From assembly GCF_000027125.1 (NCBI RefSeq), contig NC_017626.1: a stretch of 64,000 nucleotides of DNA. The stretch is one strand, 5' to 3'. This document shows, in pieces, positions 2,687 to 60,149 of this stretch; the stretch's first letter is position 1, and the number at the start of each line of letters is the position of its first letter. The DNA is from Escherichia coli 042 (GTDB lineage: Bacteria; Pseudomonadota; Gammaproteobacteria; Enterobacterales; Enterobacteriaceae). The position numbers and the translations under genes were made by a program. The notes beneath the pieces were generated by a model. It was not told the DNA's origin. It worked only from the letters and a program-made list of their open reading frames with translations, and searched no databases.

Positions 2687-3169
2687 ATGACGAAGAAAAA
2701 AGCACATAAACCTGGTTCAGCGACCATCGCGCTTAACAAGCGCGCCCGTCACGAATACTTTATCGAAGAAGAGTTCGAAGCGGGACTTGCCCTGCAAGGC
2801 TGGGAGGTTAAATCCCTGCGCGCAGGAAAAGCCAATATCAGCGACAGCTACGTCCTTCTGCGTGACGGAGAGGCATTTCTGTTTGGCGCTAACATCACGC
2901 CAATGGCCGTGGCCTCCACGCATGTGGTGTGCGATCCTACCCGTACCCGCAAGTTACTTCTCAACCAGCGCGAACTGGACTCATTGTACGGTCGCGTCAA
3001 TCGAGAAGGCTATACCGTAGTGGCGCTCTCCCTGTACTGGAAAAATGCCTGGTGCAAAGTGAAAATCGGCGTCGCCAAAGGTAAAAAACAGCACGATAAA
3101 CGTTCAGATATCAAAGAACGCGAATGGCAGGTGGATAAAGCACGTATCATGAAAAACGCCCACCGTTAA
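2687..3169 (+). CDS. smpB: SsrA-binding protein SmpB
   Basis: 160-aa ORF ([48 protein letters not shown]...) lying directly upstream of tmRNA. Confidence 0.97.
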
Positions 3170-3383
3170 ACCTGCACTCCAATTATTGACCAATTCCTCA
3201 CCGCGCCTCCCTCTCCGGCGGCGCGAATGAACATCTTATTGGCTATCACATCCGACGAAAATGTTGCCATCCCATTGCTTAATCGAATAAAAATCAGGCT
3301 ACATGGTCGCTAAATCTTTAACGATAACGCCATTGAGGCTGGTCATGGCGCTCATAAATCTGGTATACTTACCGTTACACATT

Positions 3384-3746
3384 GGGGCTGATTCTGGATT
3401 CGACGGGATTTGCGAAACCCAAGGTGCATGCCGAGGGGCGGTTGGCCTCGTAAAAAGCCGCAAAAAATAGTCGCAAACGACGAAAACTACGCTTTAGCAG
3501 CTTAATAACCTGCTTAGAGCCCTCTCTCCCTAGCCTCCGCTCTTAGGACGGGGATCAAGAGAGGTCAAACCCAAAAGAGATCGCGTGGAAGCCCTGCCTG
3601 GGGTTGAAGCGTTAAAACTTAATCAGGCTAGTTTGTTAGTGGCGTGTCCGTCCGCAGCTGGCAAGCGAATGTAAAGACTGACTAAGCATGTAGTACCGAG
3701 GACGTAGGAATTTCGGACGCGGGTTCAACTCCCGCCAGCTCCACCA
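3384..3746 (+). ncRNA. ssrA: tmRNA (SsrA), 363 nt
   Basis: Starts GGGGCTGATTCTGGATTCGACGGGATTTGCG. It contains the tag reading frame gcaaacgacgaaaactacgctttagcagcttaa (ANDENYALAA*). It ends in the tRNA-like T-arm cgcgggttcaactcccgccagctccacca. Confidence 0.98.
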
Positions 3747-3780
3747 CTTTTTAGTAAAACAAAGTCTACTAAAGACTATC

Positions 3781-3813
3781 AAGGCCGCACCTCACAAGGG
3801 TTGCGGCCTTTTT
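3781..3813 (+). terminator. intrinsic terminator downstream of ssrA
   Basis: aaGGCCGCAcctcacaagggtTGCGGCCttttt: a GC stem followed by a T-run about 35 nt after the tmRNA 3' end. Confidence 0.7.
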
Positions 3814-3858
3814 CATGTCTAGCAGAGTCTACTGAGAATTGCTAGAAGCTACGCATTA

Positions 3859-3911
3859 TGGGACCCTTATATGGACCCACCGACTGGGTCCAATAATTTG
3901 AGGGTCCAATA
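3859..3911. promoter_or_regulatory. cluster of GGACCC/GGGTCC motifs immediately upstream of int (possible Int/Xis or autoregulatory sites)
   Basis: tGGGACCC (3859-3866). Inverted pair TGGACCCAccgacTGGGTCCA (3872-3892). Direct repeat GGGTCCAAT at 3886-3894 and 3902-3910, ending 3 nt before the int ATG. Confidence 0.3.
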
Positions 3912-3912
3912 C

Positions 3913-5142
3913 ATGGCAAGGCAGACTAAAAAACTCACAGACACTGAAATCAAAAACACCAAACCAGCAGACAAAGAGATCAATCTCTTCGATGGTGATG
4001 GGCTACTGCTACGAATCGCTCCTTCATCAAAAGGAGGGAAGAAGAACTGGTATCTCAGATATCCAGTGCCAGTAACCAAGAAGCGCACCAAGATGAGCTT
4101 GGGTACCTACCCTCACCTCTCATTAGCAAAGGCAAGAGCTTTGCGTGATGAATACCTGTCGTTACTTGCTAATGGTGTTGACCCTCAAGTCCACATCACT
4201 GAAAAAACTAATGCTCTGAAAGATGCCACGGAGCACACGCTACAAGCAGTTTCTCGAAAGTGGTTAGATGAGAAAATTAAGACTTCTGGCATCTCTCTAG
4301 ACCATGCAGAAGATATCTGGCGCAGCCTCGAAAAAAACATCTTTTCAACTCTGGGTGATGTTCCTATCAAAGAGATCCGCCCCAAAATGCTCAAGCAGCA
4401 TCTTGACCCAATTGAGCAGCGCGGTGTTCTCGAAACTCTACGTCGTATAATTTCCAGACTGAATGAAATCTTTCGCTATGCTGCCACGGAAGAGCTTATA
4501 GAGTTCAATCCTGCCGACAATCTCGCTCAGCGTTTCAGTAAACCTAAGAAGCAAAACATGCCTGCCCTTCCACCTGATGAGCTACCACGCTTCATGGTTG
4601 CTTTATCTAACGCATCTATACGGTTAGAAACCCGTATGCTGATCGAGTGGCAATTGTTGACGTGGGTAAGGCCCGGTGAAGCCGTTCGGGCAAGATGGTG
4701 TGATATTGATGAAGAGAGCAGATTTTGGAATATCCCTTCAGAATTCATGAAAATGAAACGCCCACATAAGGTTCCATTGAGTAAAGAAGCTCTCCGCATT
4801 TTAGAAAACATGCGCCCTATCAGTGGTCATAGAGAATGGGTTTTCCCCAGCATCAAAGCTCCCCTCAGTCATATGCATGAACAAACAGCTAATGCAGCCA
4901 TAATTCGTATGGGGTTTGGCGGAGAGCTTGTTGCTCATGGTATGAGATCTATTGCAAGGACAGCAGCCGAAGAATACGGTAAGTTTAGAACGGAGGTGCT
5001 TGAATCCGCTCTGGCTCATACTAAAAAAGATGAAATAATAGCCGCGTATAACCGTTCGGAATACCTAGTTGAAAGAGAAGAACTAATGAAATGGTGGGGG
5101 GATTATGTCAGCAGCAAAAAATATAAGATGATGGCAGCATAA
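3913..5142 (+). CDS. P4-type tyrosine recombinase/integrase
   Basis: The N-terminus MARQTKKLTDTEIKNTKPADKEINLFDGDGLLLRIAPSSKGGKKNWYLRY is the typical P4/IntA-family arm-binding domain. The C-terminal catalytic region has ...VAHGMRSIARTAAEE... and ...ALAHTKKDEIIAAYNRSEY (R..HxxR..Y pattern). ATG 3913 is preferred over the track start 3871. Confidence 0.9.
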   Translation: MARQTKKLTDTEIKNTKPADKEINLFDGDGLLLRIAPSSKGGKKNWYLRYPVPVTKKRTKMSLGTYPHLSLAKARALRDEYLSLLANGVDPQVHITEKTNALKDATEHTLQAVSRKWLDEKIKTSGISLDHAEDIWRSLEKNIFSTLGDVPIKEIRPKMLKQHLDPIEQRGVLETLRRIISRLNEIFRYAATEELIEFNPADNLAQRFSKPKKQNMPALPPDELPRFMVALSNASIRLETRMLIEWQLLTWVRPGEAVRARWCDIDEESRFWNIPSEFMKMKRPHKVPLSKEALRILENMRPISGHREWVFPSIKAPLSHMHEQTANAAIIRMGFGGELVAHGMRSIARTAAEEYGKFRTEVLESALAHTKKDEIIAAYNRSEYLVEREELMKWWGDYVSSKKYKMMAA

Positions 5143-5163
5143 ATAAATTTTAATCATATAATT

Positions 5164-6501
5164 ATGACACAGCATAAGGTGAAAGTAATGAGAATATCAA
5201 AAACATTAGAATCATTATTTACATTTCTAAAGGAAAAAGAGCAGAAAGGTCAACTATTCAATAAAGAGGCTATACTCACAGCCACCGGTTGGAAAGCGGC
5301 TACATTTAGAACTTATTGGGTTAAAGGGCAGTTATCTGACTTTATTAGCGCAATTGATGAAGATACATTTGAGGCATCAAACTGTCAAAACATCTCAGTT
5401 ATAGAGTTTTCGAAACTATTATCTCAAAGTAAGCATAGAAGAGGGTTAGGTCATAATTGCCAGTCGAAACTAGCAAAAGCATTATTAACAAAATCTAGAG
5501 ATAATATGATGCTTGCTCTTGAATTATATAATAGACCTTCAATTGAGAATAGAATGGATGCATTTGTAATGTGTTTTTGCACTTCATGGGAACAATTATT
5601 AAAAGCTATTTTGATTGAAAAAAATGGTGAAGAGTCAATTTTCAAAAAAGAAAACAAGCGAGGATTCAGAGAAACTATTTCACTAAGAGACTGCTTAGAA
5701 AAAACATTCCCATCGAATTCAAAGGTAAGAAATAATATAGAACAAATAACAGTTTTCAGAGATCAGGCTGTACACCTTTTAATGCCAGAAATACAAGGGA
5801 TAGCCTCAAGGATATTTCAGTCTGGCGTTCTTAATTATTCATCATATTTTGAAAAATTCACAGAGGTTTCTTTTCTCAATAACAATAGCACAGGAATGAT
5901 ATCCTTGGTAGGTGAGTTTAGAACACCGCCAATATCCGTACTGAAATCCATTTATGGAGAAGTAGCGACTGATATATTAGACTTAGCAACAACTCTTCAG
6001 CAAGAAGTTGATGATAAAAATGACATAGAGTATGCAATTCCCTTAAATGTAAAACTTGTTTTTGCGACATCAGATGATGATGGGAATACCATAACCTTAG
6101 CTAAAGCTGATGAGGGAATCGAGGGGCTTAAGAAGGCTCTAATTATAGAAAAACCAGTAGATAGATCAAGAACACATCCGTATTTGCAGAAGGATGCCAT
6201 TGAGCATATAAATGAAAAAATCTACGAACTTTATAGTATAGAAAAGATAGAAAAGCATTTAGTATTCAAAGATAACAAAACAGGAAAGAAAGCGATAAAT
6301 AAAAATTGCTTTGATGCTGTTATTTGTAAGAACGGATGGAAAAAATCAAATAATAAATATCATCACAAAAACAATAATCCAGAATACCACTATTATTCAC
6401 CAGCATTAGTAGATGAATTTGTCAAGAAAGCTATGACAAACGAAGATTATCTAATGAATACAAAAAAATGGTATAATGCCAGAAGAAGTAAGAAAAAGTG
6501 A
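5164..6501 (+). CDS. DUF3644-like protein (hypothetical; candidate defence/abortive-infection-associated)
   Basis: 445-aa ORF, very AT-rich. The central segment MMLALELYNRPSIENRMDAFVMCFCTSWEQLLKAILIEKNG...ISLRDCLEKTF...VRNNIEQITVFRDQAVH resembles the DUF3644 pattern as I remember it. ATG 5188 (SD aaggtg) is an alternative start. Confidence 0.6.
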   Translation: MTQHKVKVMRISKTLESLFTFLKEKEQKGQLFNKEAILTATGWKAATFRTYWVKGQLSDFISAIDEDTFEASNCQNISVIEFSKLLSQSKHRRGLGHNCQSKLAKALLTKSRDNMMLALELYNRPSIENRMDAFVMCFCTSWEQLLKAILIEKNGEESIFKKENKRGFRETISLRDCLEKTFPSNSKVRNNIEQITVFRDQAVHLLMPEIQGIASRIFQSGVLNYSSYFEKFTEVSFLNNNSTGMISLVGEFRTPPISVLKSIYGEVATDILDLATTLQQEVDDKNDIEYAIPLNVKLVFATSDDDGNTITLAKADEGIEGLKKALIIEKPVDRSRTHPYLQKDAIEHINEKIYELYSIEKIEKHLVFKDNKTGKKAINKNCFDAVICKNGWKKSNNKYHHKNNNPEYHYYSPALVDEFVKKAMTNEDYLMNTKKWYNARRSKKK

Positions 6502-6835
6502 TGAATAGTGAAACTATGAACAGTACATATCATTTATAAGTGTGCTGTTCATAGTAATTCACAGAACATACTGATTAATTTTATTTTTTCCTAAAACCGG
6601 AAGAAAATAAACCAGTGAAATATTCTTTACATTTAAAATTCGGAGGCCACGGAAATATAAAATCTAATATTAATTACTAATTATATTTATAAAAGGTCTG
6701 CCTCTGACCATTTGAAATGAAAAACAAATCCCAATAATATAGAAAAAAATATCTGATATAATAATTTTGTAGATAAAATAGGCCTATATAAAAACATATC
6801 TTTAATTCCCCCCTTAAAAAGAGGGGCAAATACTG

Positions 6836-7882
6836 TCATTCCTCAAATCTATATAACGCGCCATCAAGATATTCTTCAACAGTATCTATACCGATCCATC
6901 TTCGGTTCAAACTCTCAGCTACAGCACCGGCAGTCATCGACCCACCAAATGGATCAAGAACTAAATCCCCTTCATCTGTAAGCATTTTAATGAAGAATTC
7001 AGGAAGCTGCATAGGGAAACGCGCAGGATGAATTTTGATACCATTAGCTTTACATTTTTTTGTATAAACGTCATTAGCTGCATTATTACCCATTTTCAAT
7101 ACATCAGACGGTGTTTCATCATCAATAAAATTAGGTGGGATAGACCCTCCATTATGGGTTTTATCAAAAGATTCATTAATATTATGTCCTGATGGTCGAA
7201 CAGTAGTTTTAACACCTTTTGCTGCAAGCCGAAGCATGTCCTTGCTATAAGGACGAAGCACTTTTTTATTACTTGCTTTTGGGTGTGGCCCTTTACTAAA
7301 CCAGAAAACATACTCTACAGAATCCTTCACTCGGACTCGTTTGACTGTAACCCATTGAGCAGGTACAGGCATCTTTGCAGGGTTGTACCAGAAAGTCTCT
7401 TGCGCTAGTCTGAATCCTACTTCCTCAACTAAAGCAATAACTAACTTAAAATGATAGATAGATCTAGTTGGCTCACCGGGATTCCAAGAGCCCCCGATGT
7501 TCAAAACGAAACTGCCATCTTCTGTCAGTATCCTTTTGATTTCTTTCGCAAAATCAACAAACCACTCAACGTAGTCCTTCTGACAGACATTACCATATTC
7601 TTTCTTAAAATGAAGTGCATATGGTGGAGATGTGAAGACTAAGTTAACCGAGTTATCAGGTATTGACTTCATCACGTCTAACGAATCGGCGTGGAAGATC
7701 GAACCCAAGTTAGATTCGTAAAACGGTTCAAACCCGTTGACTAACTTTGTAGTTGAATTTTTCTCTTTTGATGAAAAGTCAAGCGTTTTTTGAATAGTCA
7801 CAACAATAAATCTCGAAATGGGCAATCGGATTGCATTGTTGCGTACATAACACAAGGGATCAAGTACAGATGAACCAACCAC
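6836..7882 (-). CDS. beta-class DNA methyltransferase (N4-cytosine or N6-adenine), type II RM
   Basis: Motif IV VFTSPPY lies near the N-terminus. The AdoMet motif [17 protein letters not shown] lies near the C-terminus, which is the beta-class order. The first codon of the maximal ORF is GTG and the true start is unresolved (no ATG before residue 71). Confidence 0.85.
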
Positions 7883-8559
7883 AGGACTTTACAGCTCTTC
7901 TTAACAGCTTAACTCCTCAAGAGCAGCAAATGCTTTTCACGCAACTTCGCGGAAGAATTCCCATCCATCCTCTTGAACAGCAATGGAATATTACAGCAGA
8001 ATTCATTTTAGAAGCCATTGCGCGAAGCCAAGATATCACGAAACGAGGCGTAAGAGGAATCATTGCAGAGCTATGTTTCGATACATATATCATAGGTGCA
8101 ATGAAACATAAGGGCTGGATACAACATCAACTTTTTGGAGATTTACCCTATGATGCACTGATTTCTCATCCTCATGTCGGGGAAATAAAAATACAAACTA
8201 AAAACCAACGACTTGAACGTGGAGTCCCAAAATACGCAAATGGACCAATGATAAAATTCAATCCATATGTCGAAGGTTGGTATGTTTGCGAAACACAGAA
8301 AACGAGGACAGGAAAAAATGCGGAAGGGTTAGATACGAGGCCATATAGATTTGGTGAGTTTGATATACTATCAGTTTGCCTCCATCCGTCATCGGGTGAT
8401 TGGACACGATTCATGTTTTGCCCTGCATATACACTAATGCCAAGAGCGACAAATCCTGAACTAATTGCTGTTTTACAACCAGTACCACCTACACGACAAG
8501 GAAATTGGACTGATAATCTTGAGGAAGCGATTGAATGGCATTTGAACCGTAATCGTTAA
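7870..8559 (+). CDS. putative type II restriction endonuclease (PD-(D/E)xK-like)
   Basis: Divergent from, and abutting, the methyltransferase. The candidate catalytic motif is LPYD(106)[10 protein letters not shown](117)IK(119)IQTK. No recognisable family beyond this. ATG 7870 is the first ATG (the track ORF starts at TTG 7831). Confidence 0.55.
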
Positions 8560-8595
8560 AAACGGGGAATATAGCCAACTATATCTATAATATTA

Positions 8596-8615
8596 AAAGG
8601 GCCTTACGGCCCTTT
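8596..8615 (+). terminator. intrinsic terminator after the nuclease gene
   Basis: aaaGGGCCttacGGCCCtttcgtttt, 37 nt after the stop at 8559. Confidence 0.7.
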
Positions 8616-8619
8616 CGTT

Positions 8620-8720
8620 TTCCCTTAAAGGGAACTCTCCCTTGGAGAGAATACATATCCCCACACTTGGGGCAAATCAATCAGCCCATTGGGCTGTACA
8701 CCACTCCCCATACATGGGGC
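8620..8720. repeat. array of five further mini-hairpins (5-6 bp stems, 3-4 nt loops)
   Basis: TTCCCTtaaAGGGAA (8620-8634). CTCTCCcttGGAGAG (8635-8649). CCCCAcactTGGGG (8659-8672). CAGCCCattGGGCTG (8682-8696). CCCCAtacaTGGGG (8706-8719). The two CCCCA hairpins share the 3' flank GCAA(A)TCA. Confidence 0.6.
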
Positions 8721-9204
8721 AATCAGACACTTCCTGAAGTGAATATCCTCAAGGAACCATTATTAAATATAATATTAAATGTAGATTGTCAAATATATTT
8801 GAATATTTATTAAAAATATATTCACAACGACCAATCACAAATAAATTTAATCCCCCATAAATAATTAGAGGATCAAACCAAGTTCCTGATGCCTTATCTC
8901 TTTTATATCTCATGGTATATGTCTGAATGTCAAAACATGGTATATAACAACCAGAGAGCATTTTTATAGGCTGCTATTATCTGACACTCCTTTCCCCGTT
9001 GCTGTTTCCTATAAAAGAGCCAGAGATAGATAATAGCATTTTTATTTCTATCTTATTCACTCTGGATCGCTCGGCTCACAGCTTATTGGGGCGCTCGGAA
9101 CATCAACATAGGATAAAATACCTACCATTTAAATAAATCATAAGATTATACATGTCAAGATAAAGCATGAAATTATATATAGGTTTATCACGGCTATAGA
9201 TACT

Positions 9205-9516
9205 TCACTCCTGCCTCCCAATCATATCCCCAAGAAACCTTTTTCCTCGTAATTTTAATCTTGCTTTATCTTCAATGCTAATATTCGATAATTGTAATAT
9301 CAGTCCTAATATTAACTCCTTATCTACCTCTTCTACTTTACAGCCCATAGCTTTAGCTACCTCAGCACCAAGGATGATCTTCAAGCGTGTCTCTGCGCTC
9401 TTGGATAGAGATTTTTCTTTACTCTTAAGGCGATTCAGACGCATTTGAGCTGATGCTATTTTTTGCTTAATGGTTTTTTCTGATCTCGGCTTTCTACCTT
9501 TATCATCCGTATTCAT
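9205..9516 (-). CDS. TraD-like conjugal transfer / relaxosome accessory protein
   Basis: 103-aa basic protein. ...ETRLKIILGAEVAKAMGCKVEEVDKELILGLILQLSNISIEDKARLKLRGKRFL resembles the small Ti-type TraD family pattern (K-I-x-LG..V.KA.G ... LlG.LL.L). It is divergent from the relaxase gene across an 835-bp hairpin-rich spacer. Confidence 0.5.
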   Translation of the reverse strand: MNTDDKGRKPRSEKTIKQKIASAQMRLNRLKSKEKSLSKSAETRLKIILGAEVAKAMGCKVEEVDKELILGLILQLSNISIEDKARLKLRGKRFLGDMIGRQE

Positions 9517-9621
9517 AATTACTTTTCCTTCTAGTTGTCAAAAACATGGAATACAATTAAAAAAGGAAAAGGTCAAACCATAGGCAGAAGGTTGAATACT
9601 TTTTATTCCAGATTAAATAAC

Positions 9622-9695
9622 GCAGCGCGAGATGATTGTTCAAAACAATCACATTGCTGGAACAGGGTTCATCCCTGTTAATGATAGGATTCATC
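9622..9695 (+). repeat. twin-hairpin element copy R1 (candidate oriT/recombination site)
   Basis: gcagcgcgagaTGATTGTTcaaAACAATCAcattgctggAACAGGGttcatCCCTGTTaatgataggattcatc. It is repeated at 24950-25023, with 3 substitutions plus 1 indel over the 62-63 nt core. Confidence 0.85.
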
Positions 9696-9937
9696 TCAAA
9701 AAATGATGTTTTGGTTTTAAAAATATGATATTAGTAAGCTCAAAATAAAAACATGCAACACATACGAATGCAGTCACTAACATTAATTACCTGATACTCT
9801 CCGCGTTACTTATTTTATTGAATCAATGAAAACAATTTTACCTCTTGCTTTTTGACTCTGATTTCTGGTCTTAACCTGTGAATTGTGCAACACATAAAAG
9901 TATTTATAATTTTCACTATTTATTTTAAATTCTGCTT

Positions 9938-10276
9938 TCCCGCCTTACGGCGAGAGACTAATTTAACTACTTTTGCCCTTACGGGCGTTTTCTAAACACC
10001 AGAATCCAATATTATTATCCTACCTCAACCGTTTATCCGATTCCTACCTTTTTAATTTCACAGTCTGTAAAACTAGAGCTATTATTTAACTATAGAAAAA
10101 CATAAAACATTGTCGTTATTTTTAGCTCCTTTAGGAGATATAAAAATAAAGCAATGCCCACCTATACACTGCTACGCAGTGTGTGGGGTCTACCGACGGT
10201 TGCCTGCCGCAGGCTAACACCGTTTCCTTCGGAAACAAGGTCAACGTCAACACCAGAGTTTTTCTTACGAAAAACT
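9938..10276. other. hairpin-rich region upstream of the relaxase gene (candidate oriT / ssDNA-structure region)
   Basis: CGCCttacGGCG (9941-9952). GCCCttacGGGC (9975-9986). ACACTGCtacGCAGTGT (10166-10182). Nested ACGGT-tGCCTGccgCAGGCtaac-ACCGT (10196-10223). GTTTCCttcGGAAAC (10222-10236). AGTTTTTCttacGAAAAACT (10257-10276). The TTAC loop recurs. Confidence 0.45.
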
Positions 10277-10351
10277 AAAACCAGCTGAGTCGTATTGGAG
10301 ATTTATATTTTGGTTTGATATTTAAATTTATTTTGAGGTTGTTTTTATTAT

Positions 10352-11860
10352 ATGGCTATTTTTCATCTGGATTTTAAAATTGTGAAACGTTCTGAAGGCA
10401 GATCTTCCGTTGCGAAAGCTGCCTATCATGCTCGTACACGTATAACAGATGAAAGAACAGGTGATACCTATGATTATAGTCGCCGTACCGATTTATACGG
10501 ACATTTCATATTAGCACCAATTAATGCTCCAGAACATATCGTGAAAGACTCTACAGCATTGTGGAATGAAGTTGAAAGAGTTGAGCGCCAGAGCAATGGT
10601 CAAACATCCCGTTATTTCGATGTTGCCATACCTGCCGAGTTAAACAATGACGACAAGAAAAGACTTGTCCTTGAGTATTGTCAGAAAAATTTCGTTGATA
10701 AAGGCATGATTGCCGATATCGCTTTCCACGATCTTGATAGCGATAATCCTCATGCTCACGTTATGTTGACATTAAAAACCATAGGCCCTGAAGGTTTTGG
10801 TAAAAAAGAAAGAAGCTGGAACGACAGAAAAATGTCTGTTATATGGCGTGAATCATGGGCATCTATGGCTAACAGCTACCTTGCTGCCGCTGGCTCGTCA
10901 GAACGTATTGACCATCGTTCTCTTCAGGCCCAGCATGAAGAGGCATTAGAAAAAGCGGCGGTAGCTTTAGATAATGAAGAAAAAGCGCTATGGCTTGCTA
11001 AAGCCGCTGAAACAAACCGTCCTCCAATGAAGCGTATCCATAGTGCCAAATGGCGTAGTAAAGCAGCACAAGAGCAAAGAGCAGCAGAACAGGCTGTTCG
11101 TGATGCTGCCAAGCAGGAAGCGGTTGAAGTCTACAAGACTTTCAGCGAACTTGATCTTGAAATCGTCGTTGATGTCAGAAGCTTCACCGTGGCTGCTCTT
11201 GCTGAACCAGAAGAGATTGTATTACCAGAAACGCGCTCCGGCTCTTCTTCTCATGAAGCACAAAGTCCTGTATTGGTAGCGCCTATTCCTCATACTCATG
11301 TGCGTGGAGTTAAATCTTACCGCGATAAAGAAAAAGTGAGTAAAGTTGTCATTAATAATATATCAGAACCAAATGTTGCTGATGCTGACATAAACACTCT
11401 TTGGAAAACATCTCCATCTAAAACCAAAAATATGGCATCCAAAAGTACCGCTGAAAGTGTTAAAAGGAAACAGGCTAATCCGCGTCAGGATAATATCTTT
11501 AAACGCTTTACAACGCTTTTGATCGGTTTCTTCAAAGAGAAATTTATATGGGCTAAGAAGAAACCTGATCCTACCGAGATTGAACATGACAGGCATGTAG
11601 CAGAAAATTACGTCTTTGATGAAGTGCTGGGTGTCTATGTATCACGCGCTGACCATGAACAACGAGCCAGATTCAACGGTGATGATAAAGAGTTCTCTGG
11701 TTACAAGCCAACACCTGATGAGATTAAGCGTTTTCCAAGCCGTCTAGCTAATACAGCACAAACTGATAGAGAGCTCGACTACATGCCTTCGCTCGTGGCT
11801 GATAAGAAATCGTTAGCACCTAAATTGAAACCAAATGCTCCCTATAAAAATAGATTATAA
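10352..11860 (+). CDS. MobA/MobL-family (MOBQ-type) relaxase
   Basis: The N-terminus MAIFHLDFKIVKRSEGRSSVAKAAYHARTRITDERTGDTYDYS carries the catalytic Tyr region. The histidine triad HDLDSDNPHAHVMLT is present. The C-terminal half is low-complexity and no primase or helicase motifs are seen. Confidence 0.88.
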   Translation: MAIFHLDFKIVKRSEGRSSVAKAAYHARTRITDERTGDTYDYSRRTDLYGHFILAPINAPEHIVKDSTALWNEVERVERQSNGQTSRYFDVAIPAELNNDDKKRLVLEYCQKNFVDKGMIADIAFHDLDSDNPHAHVMLTLKTIGPEGFGKKERSWNDRKMSVIWRESWASMANSYLAAAGSSERIDHRSLQAQHEEALEKAAVALDNEEKALWLAKAAETNRPPMKRIHSAKWRSKAAQEQRAAEQAVRDAAKQEAVEVYKTFSELDLEIVVDVRSFTVAALAEPEEIVLPETRSGSSSHEAQSPVLVAPIPHTHVRGVKSYRDKEKVSKVVINNISEPNVADADINTLWKTSPSKTKNMASKSTAESVKRKQANPRQDNIFKRFTTLLIGFFKEKFIWAKKKPDPTEIEHDRHVAENYVFDEVLGVYVSRADHEQRARFNGDDKEFSGYKPTPDEIKRFPSRLANTAQTDRELDYMPSLVADKKSLAPKLKPNAPYKNRL

Positions 11861-37994: not shown

Positions 37995-38070
37995 TGGTGG
38001 CCCCTGCTGGACTTGAACCAGCGACCAAGCGATTATGAGTCGCCTGCTCTAACCACTGAGCTAAAGGGCC
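37995..38070 (-). tRNA. ileY: tRNA-Ile2 (anticodon CAU, lysidine-modified class), 76 nt with encoded CCA
   Basis: The reverse complement is ggccctttagctcagtggttagagcaggcgactCATaatcgcttggtcgctggttcaagtccagcaggggccacca. The cloverleaf is intact (U6-G67 wobble). It matches my recollection of E. coli ileX/ileY, and the position next to ygaQ-csiD identifies ileY. From the anticodon alone it would be read as Met. Confidence 0.9.
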
Positions 38071-57621: not shown

Positions 57622-58590
<969 letters not shown>

Positions 58591-58946
58591 GGGTGTTATT
58601 TTTCAAAAATATCACTACCCGCAGCAGGGAAATAATTCCCACCAAATAGCTTTTTATCACGCAAATATTTTGTGGTGATCTACACTGACACTCTGTTGCA
58701 TTATTCGCCTGAAACCACAATATTCAGGCGTTTTTTCGCTATCTTTGACAAAAAATATCAACTTTTCTCGATTTGCTCTCAGCCCTTATATCATGGGAAA
58801 TTCCGGCGATTTGCTCACATCAATATTCATGCCACATTTGCCATCAGGGGTTGCCTCAGATTCTCAGTATGTTAGGGTAGAAAAAAGTGACTATTTCCAT
58901 TGGGTAATGTATCGACATAAACAAATAACAGGAATCTTTCTATTGC

Positions 58947-60149
58947 ATGGCAATTAAATTAGAAATTAAAAATCTTTATAAAATATTTGGTGAGCATCCA
59001 CAGCGAGCTTTCAAATATATCGAACAAGGACTTTCAAAAGAACAAATTCTGGAAAAAACTGGGCTATCGCTTGGCGTAAAAGACGCCAGTCTGGCCATTG
59101 AAGAAGGCGAGATATTTGTCATCATGGGATTATCCGGTTCGGGTAAATCCACAATGGTACGCCTTCTCAATCGCCTGATTGAACCCACCCGCGGGCAAGT
59201 GCTGATTGATGGTGTGGATATTGCCAAAATATCCGACGCCGAACTCCGTGAGGTGCGCAGAAAAAAGATTGCGATGGTCTTTCAGTCCTTTGCCTTAATG
59301 CCGCATATGACCGTGCTGGACAATACTGCATTCGGTATGGAATTGGCCGGAATTAATGCCGAAGAACGCCGGGAAAAAGCCCTTGATGCACTGCGTCAGG
59401 TCGGGCTGGAAAATTATGCCCACAGCTACCCGGATGAACTCTCTGGCGGGATGCGTCAACGTGTGGGATTAGCCCGCGCGTTAGCGATTAATCCGGATAT
59501 ATTATTAATGGACGAAGCCTTCTCAGCACTCGATCCATTAATTCGCACCGAGATGCAGGATGAGCTGGTAAAATTACAGGCGAAACATCAGCGCACCATT
59601 GTCTTTATTTCCCACGATCTCGATGAAGCTATGCGTATTGGCGACCGAATTGCCATTATGCAAAATGGTGAAGTGGTACAGGTCGGCACACCGGATGAAA
59701 TTCTCAATAATCCGGCGAATGATTATGTCCGTACCTTCTTCCGTGGCGTCGATATTAGTCAGGTATTCAGTGCGAAAGATATTGCTCGCCGGACACCGAA
59801 CGGCTTAATCCGTAAAACCCCCGGCTTCGGCCCGCGTTCGGCACTGAAATTATTGCAGGATGAAGATCGCGAATATGGCTACGTCATCGAACGCGGTAAT
59901 AAGTTTGTCGGCGCAGTGTCTATCGATTCGCTTAAAACCGCGTTAACGCAGCAGCAAGGTCTTGATGCGGCGCTGATTGATGCGCCGTTAGCGGTCGATG
60001 CACAAACGCCTCTTAGCGAGTTGCTCTCTCATGTCGGACAGGCCCCCTGTGCGGTGCCCGTGGTCGACGAGGACCAACAGTATGTCGGCATCATTTCGAA
60101 AGGAATGCTGCTGCGCGCTTTAGATCGTGAGGGGGTAAATAATGGCTGA
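58947..60149 (+). CDS. proV: glycine betaine/proline ABC transporter ATPase ProV
   Basis: 400 aa with Walker [10 protein letters not shown], signature [15 protein letters not shown] and C-terminal tandem CBS region. Confidence 0.97.

Follow-up and report, generated by a model that had tools for sequence, protein, structure and literature searches.

The 64,000-nucleotide (nt) stretch of Escherichia coli 042 DNA analysed here (contig NC_017626.1; hereafter the window, in whose coordinates positions are given) contains, at ssrA, a ~26-kb integrative element of the mobilisable or conjugative kind. We consider it probable that the variable slot of this element, between the integrase gene (int) and traD-mobQ, holds two independent defence modules: a DUF3644 protein with a HEPN domain, and a Type II restriction-modification (R-M) system without a controller (C) gene, consisting of a methylase (M) and a divergently transcribed nuclease (R) of 229 amino acids (aa). 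Both modules are of known kinds. The architecture of the DUF3644 protein was described in 2013 and the protein is a PADLOC candidate system, and the R-M pair is of standard Type II design. What is new is a restriction endonuclease (REase) family that has no curated model and is related in sequence to I-Ssp6803I, a putative controller of the HTH_17 type (HTH, helix-turn-helix) in most members of the R-M family, with natural HTH-fused and HTH-less variants, and a clear picture of the cargo slot in this element family. An earlier note, made from the letters of the sequence, had called the locus an integrase-proximal defence islet; this is borne out by sister elements, in which the int/traD-mobQ slot has different defence cargo.

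Cargo slot and independence of the two modules

Eighty loci, each with an R homologue, were taken from reference genomes of Proteobacteria, Acidobacteriota, Planctomycetota, Verrucomicrobiota, Bacteroidota, Nitrospirota, Ignavibacteria, Fibrobacteres, Leptospiraceae and Trueperaceae. None of the 80 has a DUF3644 gene within 4 kb. E. coli EC0026B and E500002 have the integrase and DUF3644 genes (96% identity) but no R-M pair, and Pluralibacter, also without R-M genes, has the order int-DUF3644-DUF6387-AlpA...MobA. Because of this lack of co-occurrence, and because sister elements have one module alone, the DUF3644 gene and the R-M pair are independent cargo.

The borders of the R-M cassette are shared separately with different elements. 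In the EC0026B element, which is located at yaeI and has the order int-DUF3644-traD-hypothetical gene-mobQ followed by reverse-transcriptase, HTH and TIR genes (L175:14896-18001), homology with the window ends at 6555 (query 1556), placing the left boundary of the cassette near 6556. On the right, a conserved backbone block of 215 bp (8586-8800) recurs with 88-92% identity in other E. coli elements, behind cargo of other kinds. In the R1 element at tRNA-Leu, for example, the order is int-hypothetical gene-Type III mod/res, then this block after the res gene, then traD-mobQ. The R-M cassette is thus a discrete unit of ~2 kb (about 6556-8585). From the comparison of sister elements, this part of a mobilisable element is a defence hotspot with both modules as its cargo.

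Several GC-rich hairpins, of which that at 8596-8615 resembles a terminator, are found in the block at 8586-8800. The block may act as a cluster of terminators or as a hotspot of recombination. The R1 element also carries, beyond mobQ, a fragment of a phosphorothioate-dependent restriction enzyme and an HNH endonuclease (L176:14965-15901).

The earlier note had left two options for the DUF3644 protein, an independent single-gene defence, which fits the distribution just described, and a specificity or sensor partner of the R-M pair, which that distribution contradicts. A single system made up of all three genes would be in keeping with their physical adjacency and convergent arrangement, with the presence in R-M operons of genes of the EC042_2821 family, to which the DUF3644 protein belongs, as reported in a 2013 survey of HEPN proteins (PMC3710099), and with a Vibrio albus homologue (67% identical) whose gene comes last in a Type I hsdR-hsdM-hsdS operon, preceded by an unannotated 331-aa gene (L090:1-16372). 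This Vibrio block is part of a Tn7-like transposon that is CRISPR-associated and encodes TniQ and Csy2/3/4. Besides the 80 loci and the int-DUF3644 elements without R-M genes, two observations speak against a single system: in Picosynechococcus the DUF3644 protein stands alone among housekeeping genes, and the GC content is 0.32 in the DUF3644 gene versus 0.40 (0.39-0.41) in M and R. Since the DUF3644 and M genes are convergent, they are not co-transcribed. A single system is largely refuted by the distribution, and we find it scarcely credible. More distant relatives of the HEPN domain are found in temperate and satellite phages of Gram-positive bacteria.

Pairing of methylase and nuclease across genomes

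An orthologue of the window methylase (55-86% identity by tblastn) is found immediately upstream of R, on the opposite strand, in 78 of the 80 loci; in one of the two remaining loci R lies only 450 nt from the contig end. Spot checks of Burkholderia cepacia, a deltaproteobacterial metagenome-assembled genome (MAG) and metagenome contigs all found a divergent N6_N4 methylase of 321-330 aa beside the R homologue. The nuclease is less conserved across the loci (41-76%) than the methylase, as is usual for R-M pairs. Separate, adjacent M and R genes that co-occur, together with a nuclease fold whose catalytic residues are conserved, are what is expected of a Type II system, and on the strength of the pairing in 78 loci we take M and R to be a genuine Type II R-M pair.

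It is possible, if doubtful, that this pair acts mainly to stabilise the mobile element or to make the cell addicted to it, and not as a barrier to foreign DNA. Type II R-M systems are established as selfish post-segregational killers, and this one is located near the integrase gene of an integrative mobilisable element, in a discrete cassette whose borders are shared separately with other elements. Most members of the R family, however, are chromosomal, in MAGs and with housekeeping neighbours, and in sequenced plasmids the family is almost missing, with one distant archaeal match. Stabilisation is in any case compatible with defence and does not exclude it.

The methylase

The methylase gene occupies 6836-7801 on the minus strand (maximal open reading frame (ORF) to 7882) and converges on the DUF3644 gene across an AT-rich intergenic region (6502-6835; GC 0.26). 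Its start is placed at GTG 7801 by PGAP, giving 321 aa, which is also the length of the orthologous Burkholderia methylase. The protein matches Pfam N6_N4_Mtase (5.5e-43) and PADLOC MTase_II (2e-102), and its best solved relative is M.PvuII (PDB 1boo; E 9.8e-91), with 50.5% identity over 287 aligned residues that is evenly distributed (53% in the central region). The SPPY motif (aa 58, nt 7619-7630) precedes FGGS (aa 285, nt 6938-6949), so that motif IV comes before motif I, the beta-class order. The convergent beta-class methyltransferase of the earlier note is thereby upheld, and we assign the enzyme to this class as a full-length M.PvuII homologue. N4-cytosine methylases typically carry SPP(Y/F) instead of (D/N)PPY, and the chemistry is probably N4-cytosine methylation.

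The nuclease family

The R gene lies at 7870-8559 on the plus strand (maximal ORF from 7831). The alignment with its homologues begins at residue 1 of the 229-aa form, and ATG 7870 is also the PGAP start. The earlier note could name no family for this protein, and we likewise found none in Pfam, NCBIfam or PADLOC. A sequence search of the PDB gave no meaningful match apart from a weak alignment with I-Ssp6803I. Against the Pfam model PDDEXK_5 (PF11645) the window protein gave nothing even at E<=10, short of the gathering threshold, and a few distant homologues barely pass it (26.4-28.6 bits, with a cut-off of 26.1). The family is nonetheless sizeable, with 1,361 homologous clusters at 90% identity and, from an exhaustive profile search, 466 at 50% identity.

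The AlphaFold model of R (pLDDT 92.3, pTM 0.86) has a PD-(D/E)XK core fold, as the earlier note had supposed, and the structures nearest to it are a homing endonuclease and Holliday-junction resolvases. In 48 aligned sequences the residues E67 (8068-8070), D95 (8152-8154), Q109-x-K111 (8194-8202) and E141-x-Q143 (8290-8298), where x is any residue, are invariant. The D-X10-E-X-K signature that had been read from the sequence corresponds to D95...E105-x-K107, but E105 and K107 vary and the invariant set is a different one, with D95...Q109-x-K111 as a variant active site. A profile alignment of R with I-Ssp6803I places PYD...IQvK on SYD...VQVK and E-t-q-k-t-R on D-N-R-R-T-R, and the D...QxK arrangement is therefore common to an enzyme known to be active. 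We regard R as a candidate Type II nuclease of the PD-(D/E)XK fold, on an I-Ssp6803I-like branch.

The methylase could alternatively be an orphan, with the 229-aa protein a degenerate nuclease, a selfish gene like that of a homing endonuclease, or a repair or resolvase protein. The failure of curated REase models to match R, the nature of its nearest structures and its non-canonical QxK motif would all agree with this. We think it very unlikely, given the near-obligate divergent pairing with a methyltransferase across phyla, the invariance of every residue at a catalytic position, and the presence in most members of a controller-like HTH gene at the start of R or of an HTH fusion. There is also no intron or intein context, and the active I-Ssp6803I has the same D...QxK arrangement.

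The spacer between M and R and the control of expression

The maximal ORFs of M and R overlap head-to-head at 7831-7882, from which interleaved starts had been deduced. This overlap is an artefact of the maximal ORFs, and the supported starts at GTG 7801 and ATG 7870 leave a spacer of 68 bp (7802-7869). The absence of a C-protein gene, also claimed earlier, is confirmed for the window: the spacer has no ORF, and no small HTH gene lies upstream of R or overlaps it. A remnant C gene in the window was considered and rejected, as tblastn with three HTH proteins of the family found nothing.

In 59 of the 80 loci, a gene for an HTH protein of 66-87 aa ends at the start of R or overlaps it, which is the classical position of a controller. 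The protein has the motif W-I-S-Q-A-E-A-A-R-L-R-G-V-S-R-Q-A-I (WISQAEAARLRGVSRQAI...; examples are L005:5801-6004 and L004:1108-1326) and belongs to the Pfam class HTH_17 (E 5.9e-12 to 9e-05), which is excisionase/MerR-like, and not to the Xre-type HTH_3. To our knowledge, the known R-M controller proteins are Xre-type, and the HTH_17 gene may represent a different class of controller. Some family members (P0243, P0253 and P0318) have the HTH fused in frame to the nuclease, which links the HTH functionally to R.

A spacer of only 59-75 bp without an HTH gene occurs in the window and in Burkholderia, Zoogloea, Variovorax and Limnohabitans. Separate HTH-less groups, with gaps of 21-126 bp, are found in Pyrinomonadaceae/Blastocatellia, Planctomycetota, Leptospiraceae and Bacteroidota. 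The earlier note's suggestion of an unusual control of R versus M is fair as a question, but the C-less state recurs in several clades of the family and is a known sort of variation, not a peculiarity of this locus.

An alignment of four C-less proteobacterial spacers contains two invariant blocks, G-ATTGT-GCGTAC-T (GCATTGTTGCGTACAT in the window, 7833-7848) and GGGA-CAAG, with the rest variable; the Variovorax spacer lacks the conserved block. Read on the M strand, the invariant blocks give TTG(A/C)TC, 17-18 nt and nACAAT. In the window this corresponds to a putative M promoter on the bottom strand, with a -35 element TTGATC (top-strand 7858-7863), 17 nt and a -10 element AACAAT (top-strand 7835-7840), located 33 nt before the GTG. 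Next to the -35 element, and overlapping it, is the Shine-Dalgarno sequence of R, AAGGGA (7854-7859). The spacer pattern suggests a constitutive M promoter whose occupancy may interfere with the expression of R. A promoter alone does not explain the invariant GCGTAC core.

Control by a methylation switch like that of CfrBI was considered for these systems and rejected, because the four C-less proteobacterial spacers have no 6-bp palindrome in common; those of E. coli and Zoogloea contain no 6-bp palindrome. A perfect inverted repeat with 5-bp arms, GCAAT-CGG-ATTGC (window 7822-7834), lies in the E. coli spacer; it overlaps the region where the M transcript would start and is not conserved in Burkholderia, Zoogloea or Limnohabitans.

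Recognition specificity

Because the methylase is homologous to M.PvuII, we examined avoidance of CAGCTG. In 642 kb around the R-M loci, CAGCTG is the most depleted of 3,867 testable hexamers, with 75 observed against 162.5 expected (observed/expected ratio (O/E) 0.46). It also has the lowest O/E when the Acidobacteriota-like loci and the other phyla are analysed apart, and when the R-M genes are masked. In 80 control GlmS loci from soil metagenomes (893 kb, without R or M matches), CAGCTG is likewise top-ranked, with an O/E of 0.56 compared with 0.48 in a matched R-M-positive set. This difference is not significant (p = 0.17), and the avoidance signal is therefore rejected as evidence for the specificity of the R-M system. 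The DUF3644 loci and the window itself are too small to serve as controls.

Among 6-bp palindromes, CAGCTG is the scarcest relative to expectation (O/E about 0.5) in Acidobacteriota-like soil contigs, in those with the R-M pair and in those without it alike. This could be caused either by widespread CAGCTG-specific R-M systems in these phyla or by a compositional effect.

The DUF3644 HEPN protein

The DUF3644 gene lies directly behind the integrase gene on the plus strand, within the AT-rich 445-aa ORF (5164-6501) to which the earlier note had assigned a DUF3644 core. The core is confirmed by a Pfam DUF3644 match at aa 107-281 (5482-6006; E 5.5e-47; residue numbers are those of the 445-aa maximal ORF). 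The true start is most likely ATG 5188, giving a protein of 437 aa (5188-6501), since all 46 of the aligned homologues start at the equivalent of M9, PGAP annotates the same start, and the Shine-Dalgarno sequence AAGGTGA (5176-5182) is located 5 nt before this ATG. The start at 5164 has no Shine-Dalgarno sequence.

The regions on either side of the core, which had been left unassigned, match the published architecture of the EC042_2821 family, in which a winged helix-turn-helix (wHTH), a HEPN and an REase domain follow one another (Anantharaman et al. 2013; PMC3710099). At the N-terminus, three helices (aa 13-28, 34-41 and 45-53) and a beta-hairpin (strands 61-65 and 68-71) are modelled by AlphaFold with a pLDDT of about 90, and we adopt the wHTH label of the published family for this winged-helix-like region (aa 13-71; 5200-5376). 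An alignment of 47 homologues shows conservation of the N-terminal ~100 aa (W43, Y51, K54, Q56 and SQSK at 87-90) and, in the HEPN Rx4H motif (nt 5758-5775), invariant R199 and H204. The HEPN domain was the only part returned by a fold search with the full-length model. The protein thus has the profile, the Rx4-6H motif and the fold of the EC042_2821/DUF3644 family within the HEPN superfamily.

In the C-terminal region (aa 333-428; 6160-6447), the match of the window copy to the EC042_2821 REase-like model PF18740 is sub-threshold (E 0.0034). The model matches 25 of 47 full-length homologues at E<=0.001 (best 1.2e-08), and the homology is therefore real. We assign the protein, from its profile matches, to a conserved family with wHTH-like, HEPN and EC042_2821 REase-like domains. 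It also qualifies as the single-gene candidate system PDC-S19 of PADLOC, as the model PDLC04952 matches at aa 102-435 (2.6e-68) and eight more PDC-S19 models match as well. No paper naming PDC-S19 was found within the literature searched. Full-length homologues, 51-83% identical and 430-450 aa long, are present in Enterobacterales, Vibrio, Pseudoalteromonas, Shewanella, Methylophaga and cyanobacteria.

Two described systems bear on the function. HEC-08, with DUF3644 and zinc-ribbon-like domains, is anti-phage, and mutation of the HEPN histidine abolishes its activity (Payne et al. preprint 2024). The Ishtar proteins Ist1 and Ist2, which join a HEPN domain of the DUF4145 or DUF3644 type to an alpha/beta C-terminal domain, cause rapid loss of the RP4 plasmid (2026 preprint). 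By analogy with the EC042_2821 family (PMC3710099) and the HEC-08 mutagenesis, the HEPN domain of the window protein may be an RNase, and its triggers may resemble those of HEC-08 and Ishtar.

The protein might instead serve mainly the element itself, by excluding or curing rival plasmids and elements or by controlling maintenance, and not be an anti-phage defence of the host. Its gene directly follows the integrase gene in three related elements at different attachment sites, and curing of the conjugative plasmid RP4 by the Ishtar proteins kills few cells. However, the R1 sister element has a Type III R-M system and no DUF3644 gene, the family also occurs in the Tn7-like CRISPR transposon beside a Type I system, alone in a cyanobacterium and in phages, and HEC-08 is anti-phage with the same HEPN domain. 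We consider a function mainly for the element unlikely.

The element and its chromosomal setting

To the left of the island the gene order is recN, bamE, yfjF, ratA, smpB, ssrA and then the tyrosine integrase gene. The ssrA gene (tmRNA; 3384-3746, plus strand), the chromosomal attachment site of the element, is identified by ARAGORN, by Rfam (RF00023, 292.8 bits) and by the RefSeq annotation. The integrase gene (3913-5142, plus strand, from the PGAP start; maximal ORF from 3871) encodes the Pfam domains Arm-DNA-bind_3, Phage_int_M and Phage_integrase. The backbone to the right of the slot (9205-11860) begins with traD (9205-9516, minus strand; Pfam TraD) and the MobQ relaxase gene (10352-11860, plus strand; Pfam MobA_MobL; NCBIfam MobQ 1.6e-77), and the island also contains TraW-like and DotA/TraY-like genes and H-NS paralogues. 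Its GC content is 0.38, compared with 0.49-0.50 in the core, and the core genes glaH, lhgD and gabDTP return from about 30 kb in the window. An integrase gene following ssrA, a low-GC island of transfer genes and the return of core genes place the locus at the integrase-proximal end of an integrative mobilisable or conjugative element. Only a few genes resembling those of a type IV secretion system are encoded, and the element may be mobilisable and not self-transmissible.

A search at 20-34 kb for attR, the right attachment site, found no direct repeat of at least 12 nt of the ssrA 3' end. An Rfam scan of 3000-10500 gave nothing besides tmRNA. The E. coli isolate AHB1 (NZ_OZ547150.1) is 100% identical to the window over 5000-8800, and its annotation reads ssrA-int-DUF3644-M-R-traD-mobQ. 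Only 4 of 5,426 complete E. coli genomes have all of 5000-8800. The E. coli lineage is one from blood culture.

Two observations were made elsewhere in the window. ARAGORN calls a tRNA-Met at 37995-38070 (minus strand), probably a false positive since the annotation of the identical RefSeq genome has the csiR coding sequence at this position and no tRNA. At about 58106-59922, two genes annotated as "ATP-binding protein" and "RNA ligase family protein" are inserted between luxS and emrB, which we take to be neighbours in E. coli K-12. This insert may be another small accessory or defence islet.

Proposed mechanism and implications

In the first module, recognition or binding of foreign nucleic acid would most likely fall to the winged-helix-like and REase-like domains, and the HEPN domain, with R199-x4-H204, would be the effector RNase that cuts RNA upon activation. 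RNA cleavage would then abort phage infection or cure plasmids. In the second module, M would methylate cytosine at N4 within a short, probably palindromic, site, and R would cleave the same site when unmethylated, using E67, D95, Q109-x-K111 and E141. Cleavage would be Mg-dependent, with R predicted to be dimeric or tetrameric. M is probably transcribed from a sigma-70-like promoter within the 68-bp spacer, and from the overlap of its -35 element with the ribosome-binding site of R we propose that M is favoured over R after entry into a new cell.

Several points weigh against our reading of the locus as two cargo defence modules. R lacks a match among the nuclease models of Pfam, NCBIfam and PADLOC, and its D...QxK variant is without the usual second acidic residue of the motif; we propose, by analogy, that E141 substitutes for it. 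The AlphaFold model of the DUF3644 protein is poor in the C-terminal part (pLDDT 40-60 at aa 295-333), and the REase-like domain there has no clear or canonical catalytic motif. A generic promoter scan called no promoter in the M/R spacer, and no R promoter was identified by it. The adjacency of the integrase and DUF3644 genes in three related elements could also mean a function of the element and not cargo.

A more far-reaching proposal can be put forward only tentatively. The 229-aa family (~466 clusters) would be an unrecognised family of Type II restriction enzymes, a cellular sister group of I-Ssp6803I, paired throughout with M.PvuII-like N4-cytosine methylases and mostly governed by HTH_17 proteins that are sometimes fused to the nuclease. 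The E. coli clade would have lost the controller and would rely on the 16-nt element at 7833-7848, with overlapping signals for the M promoter and the ribosome-binding site of R. Separately, the wHTH-HEPN-REase-like protein would be an Ishtar-like plasmid-curing factor used by the element against rival plasmids.

Defence annotation using Pfam, NCBIfam and PADLOC would probably miss this R-M system, as the methylase could be read as an orphan when the nuclease matches no curated model. It is recovered through the pairing statistics, which also delimit a family of several hundred clusters for possible inclusion in hidden Markov model libraries. The family ties I-Ssp6803I to R-M nucleases by sequence and not by fold alone, which bears on the exchange of scaffolds between homing and restriction enzymes, and its HTH-controlled, HTH-fused and HTH-less variants provide a natural comparison within one R-M system. 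Small mobilisable elements at ssrA, yaeI and tRNA-Leu shuffle defence cargo in a single integrase-adjacent slot, the cargo being the HEPN protein, Type II R-M, Type III R-M and reverse-transcriptase/TIR genes.

Comparison with known systems

The PvuII system is the closest to the window pair on the methylase side, where the homology with M.PvuII is full-length. R.PvuII, in contrast, has 157 aa compared with 229 aa in the window nuclease, with no similarity detectable in a PDB sequence search. C.PvuII is Xre-type, whereas the small HTH proteins of relatives of the window nuclease are HTH_17, and the window copy has no HTH gene of either kind. Systems of the CfrBI type, with a short promoter region common to both genes, resemble the window pair in their divergent M and R genes, a spacer of ~70 bp, the lack of a C gene, an N4-cytosine methylase (a probable one in the window) and overlapping signals, which suggest that M and R compete for expression. 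Control in CfrBI depends on the system's own recognition site in the spacer, whereas the E. coli spacer has no 6-bp palindrome.

On the nuclease side, I-Ssp6803I (PDB 2ost; PDDEXK_5) has the D...QxK pattern in common with R in the profile alignment. It is an intron-encoded homing enzyme of 150 aa with a 23-bp target and no methylase (PMC3384342). The window protein, unlike it, has an extra N-terminal four-helix region of ~55 aa and a constant methylase partner, and does not itself reach the Pfam PDDEXK_5 threshold. Among REases, R.PvuII is the one that I-Ssp6803I resembles in particular (PMC3384342), which fits the pairing of the R family with M.PvuII-like methylases.

The DUF3644 protein has the HEPN domain, the Rx4H motif and the C-terminal REase-like domain in common with the EC042_2821/DUF3644 family (Anantharaman et al. 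2013) and with PDC-S19. The PDC-S19 profiles, of 323-357 positions, cover only aa 102-435, and the subfamily of the window protein adds a conserved N-terminal module of ~100 aa. HEC-08 and Ishtar were compared by description only: HEC-08 has zinc-ribbon-like C-terminal domains, whereas the C-terminus of the window protein matches PF18740, which sets it outside HEC-08, and the Ishtar proteins, unlike the window protein, have the HEPN domain at the N-terminus and no wHTH. All three are single-gene systems with a HEPN effector.

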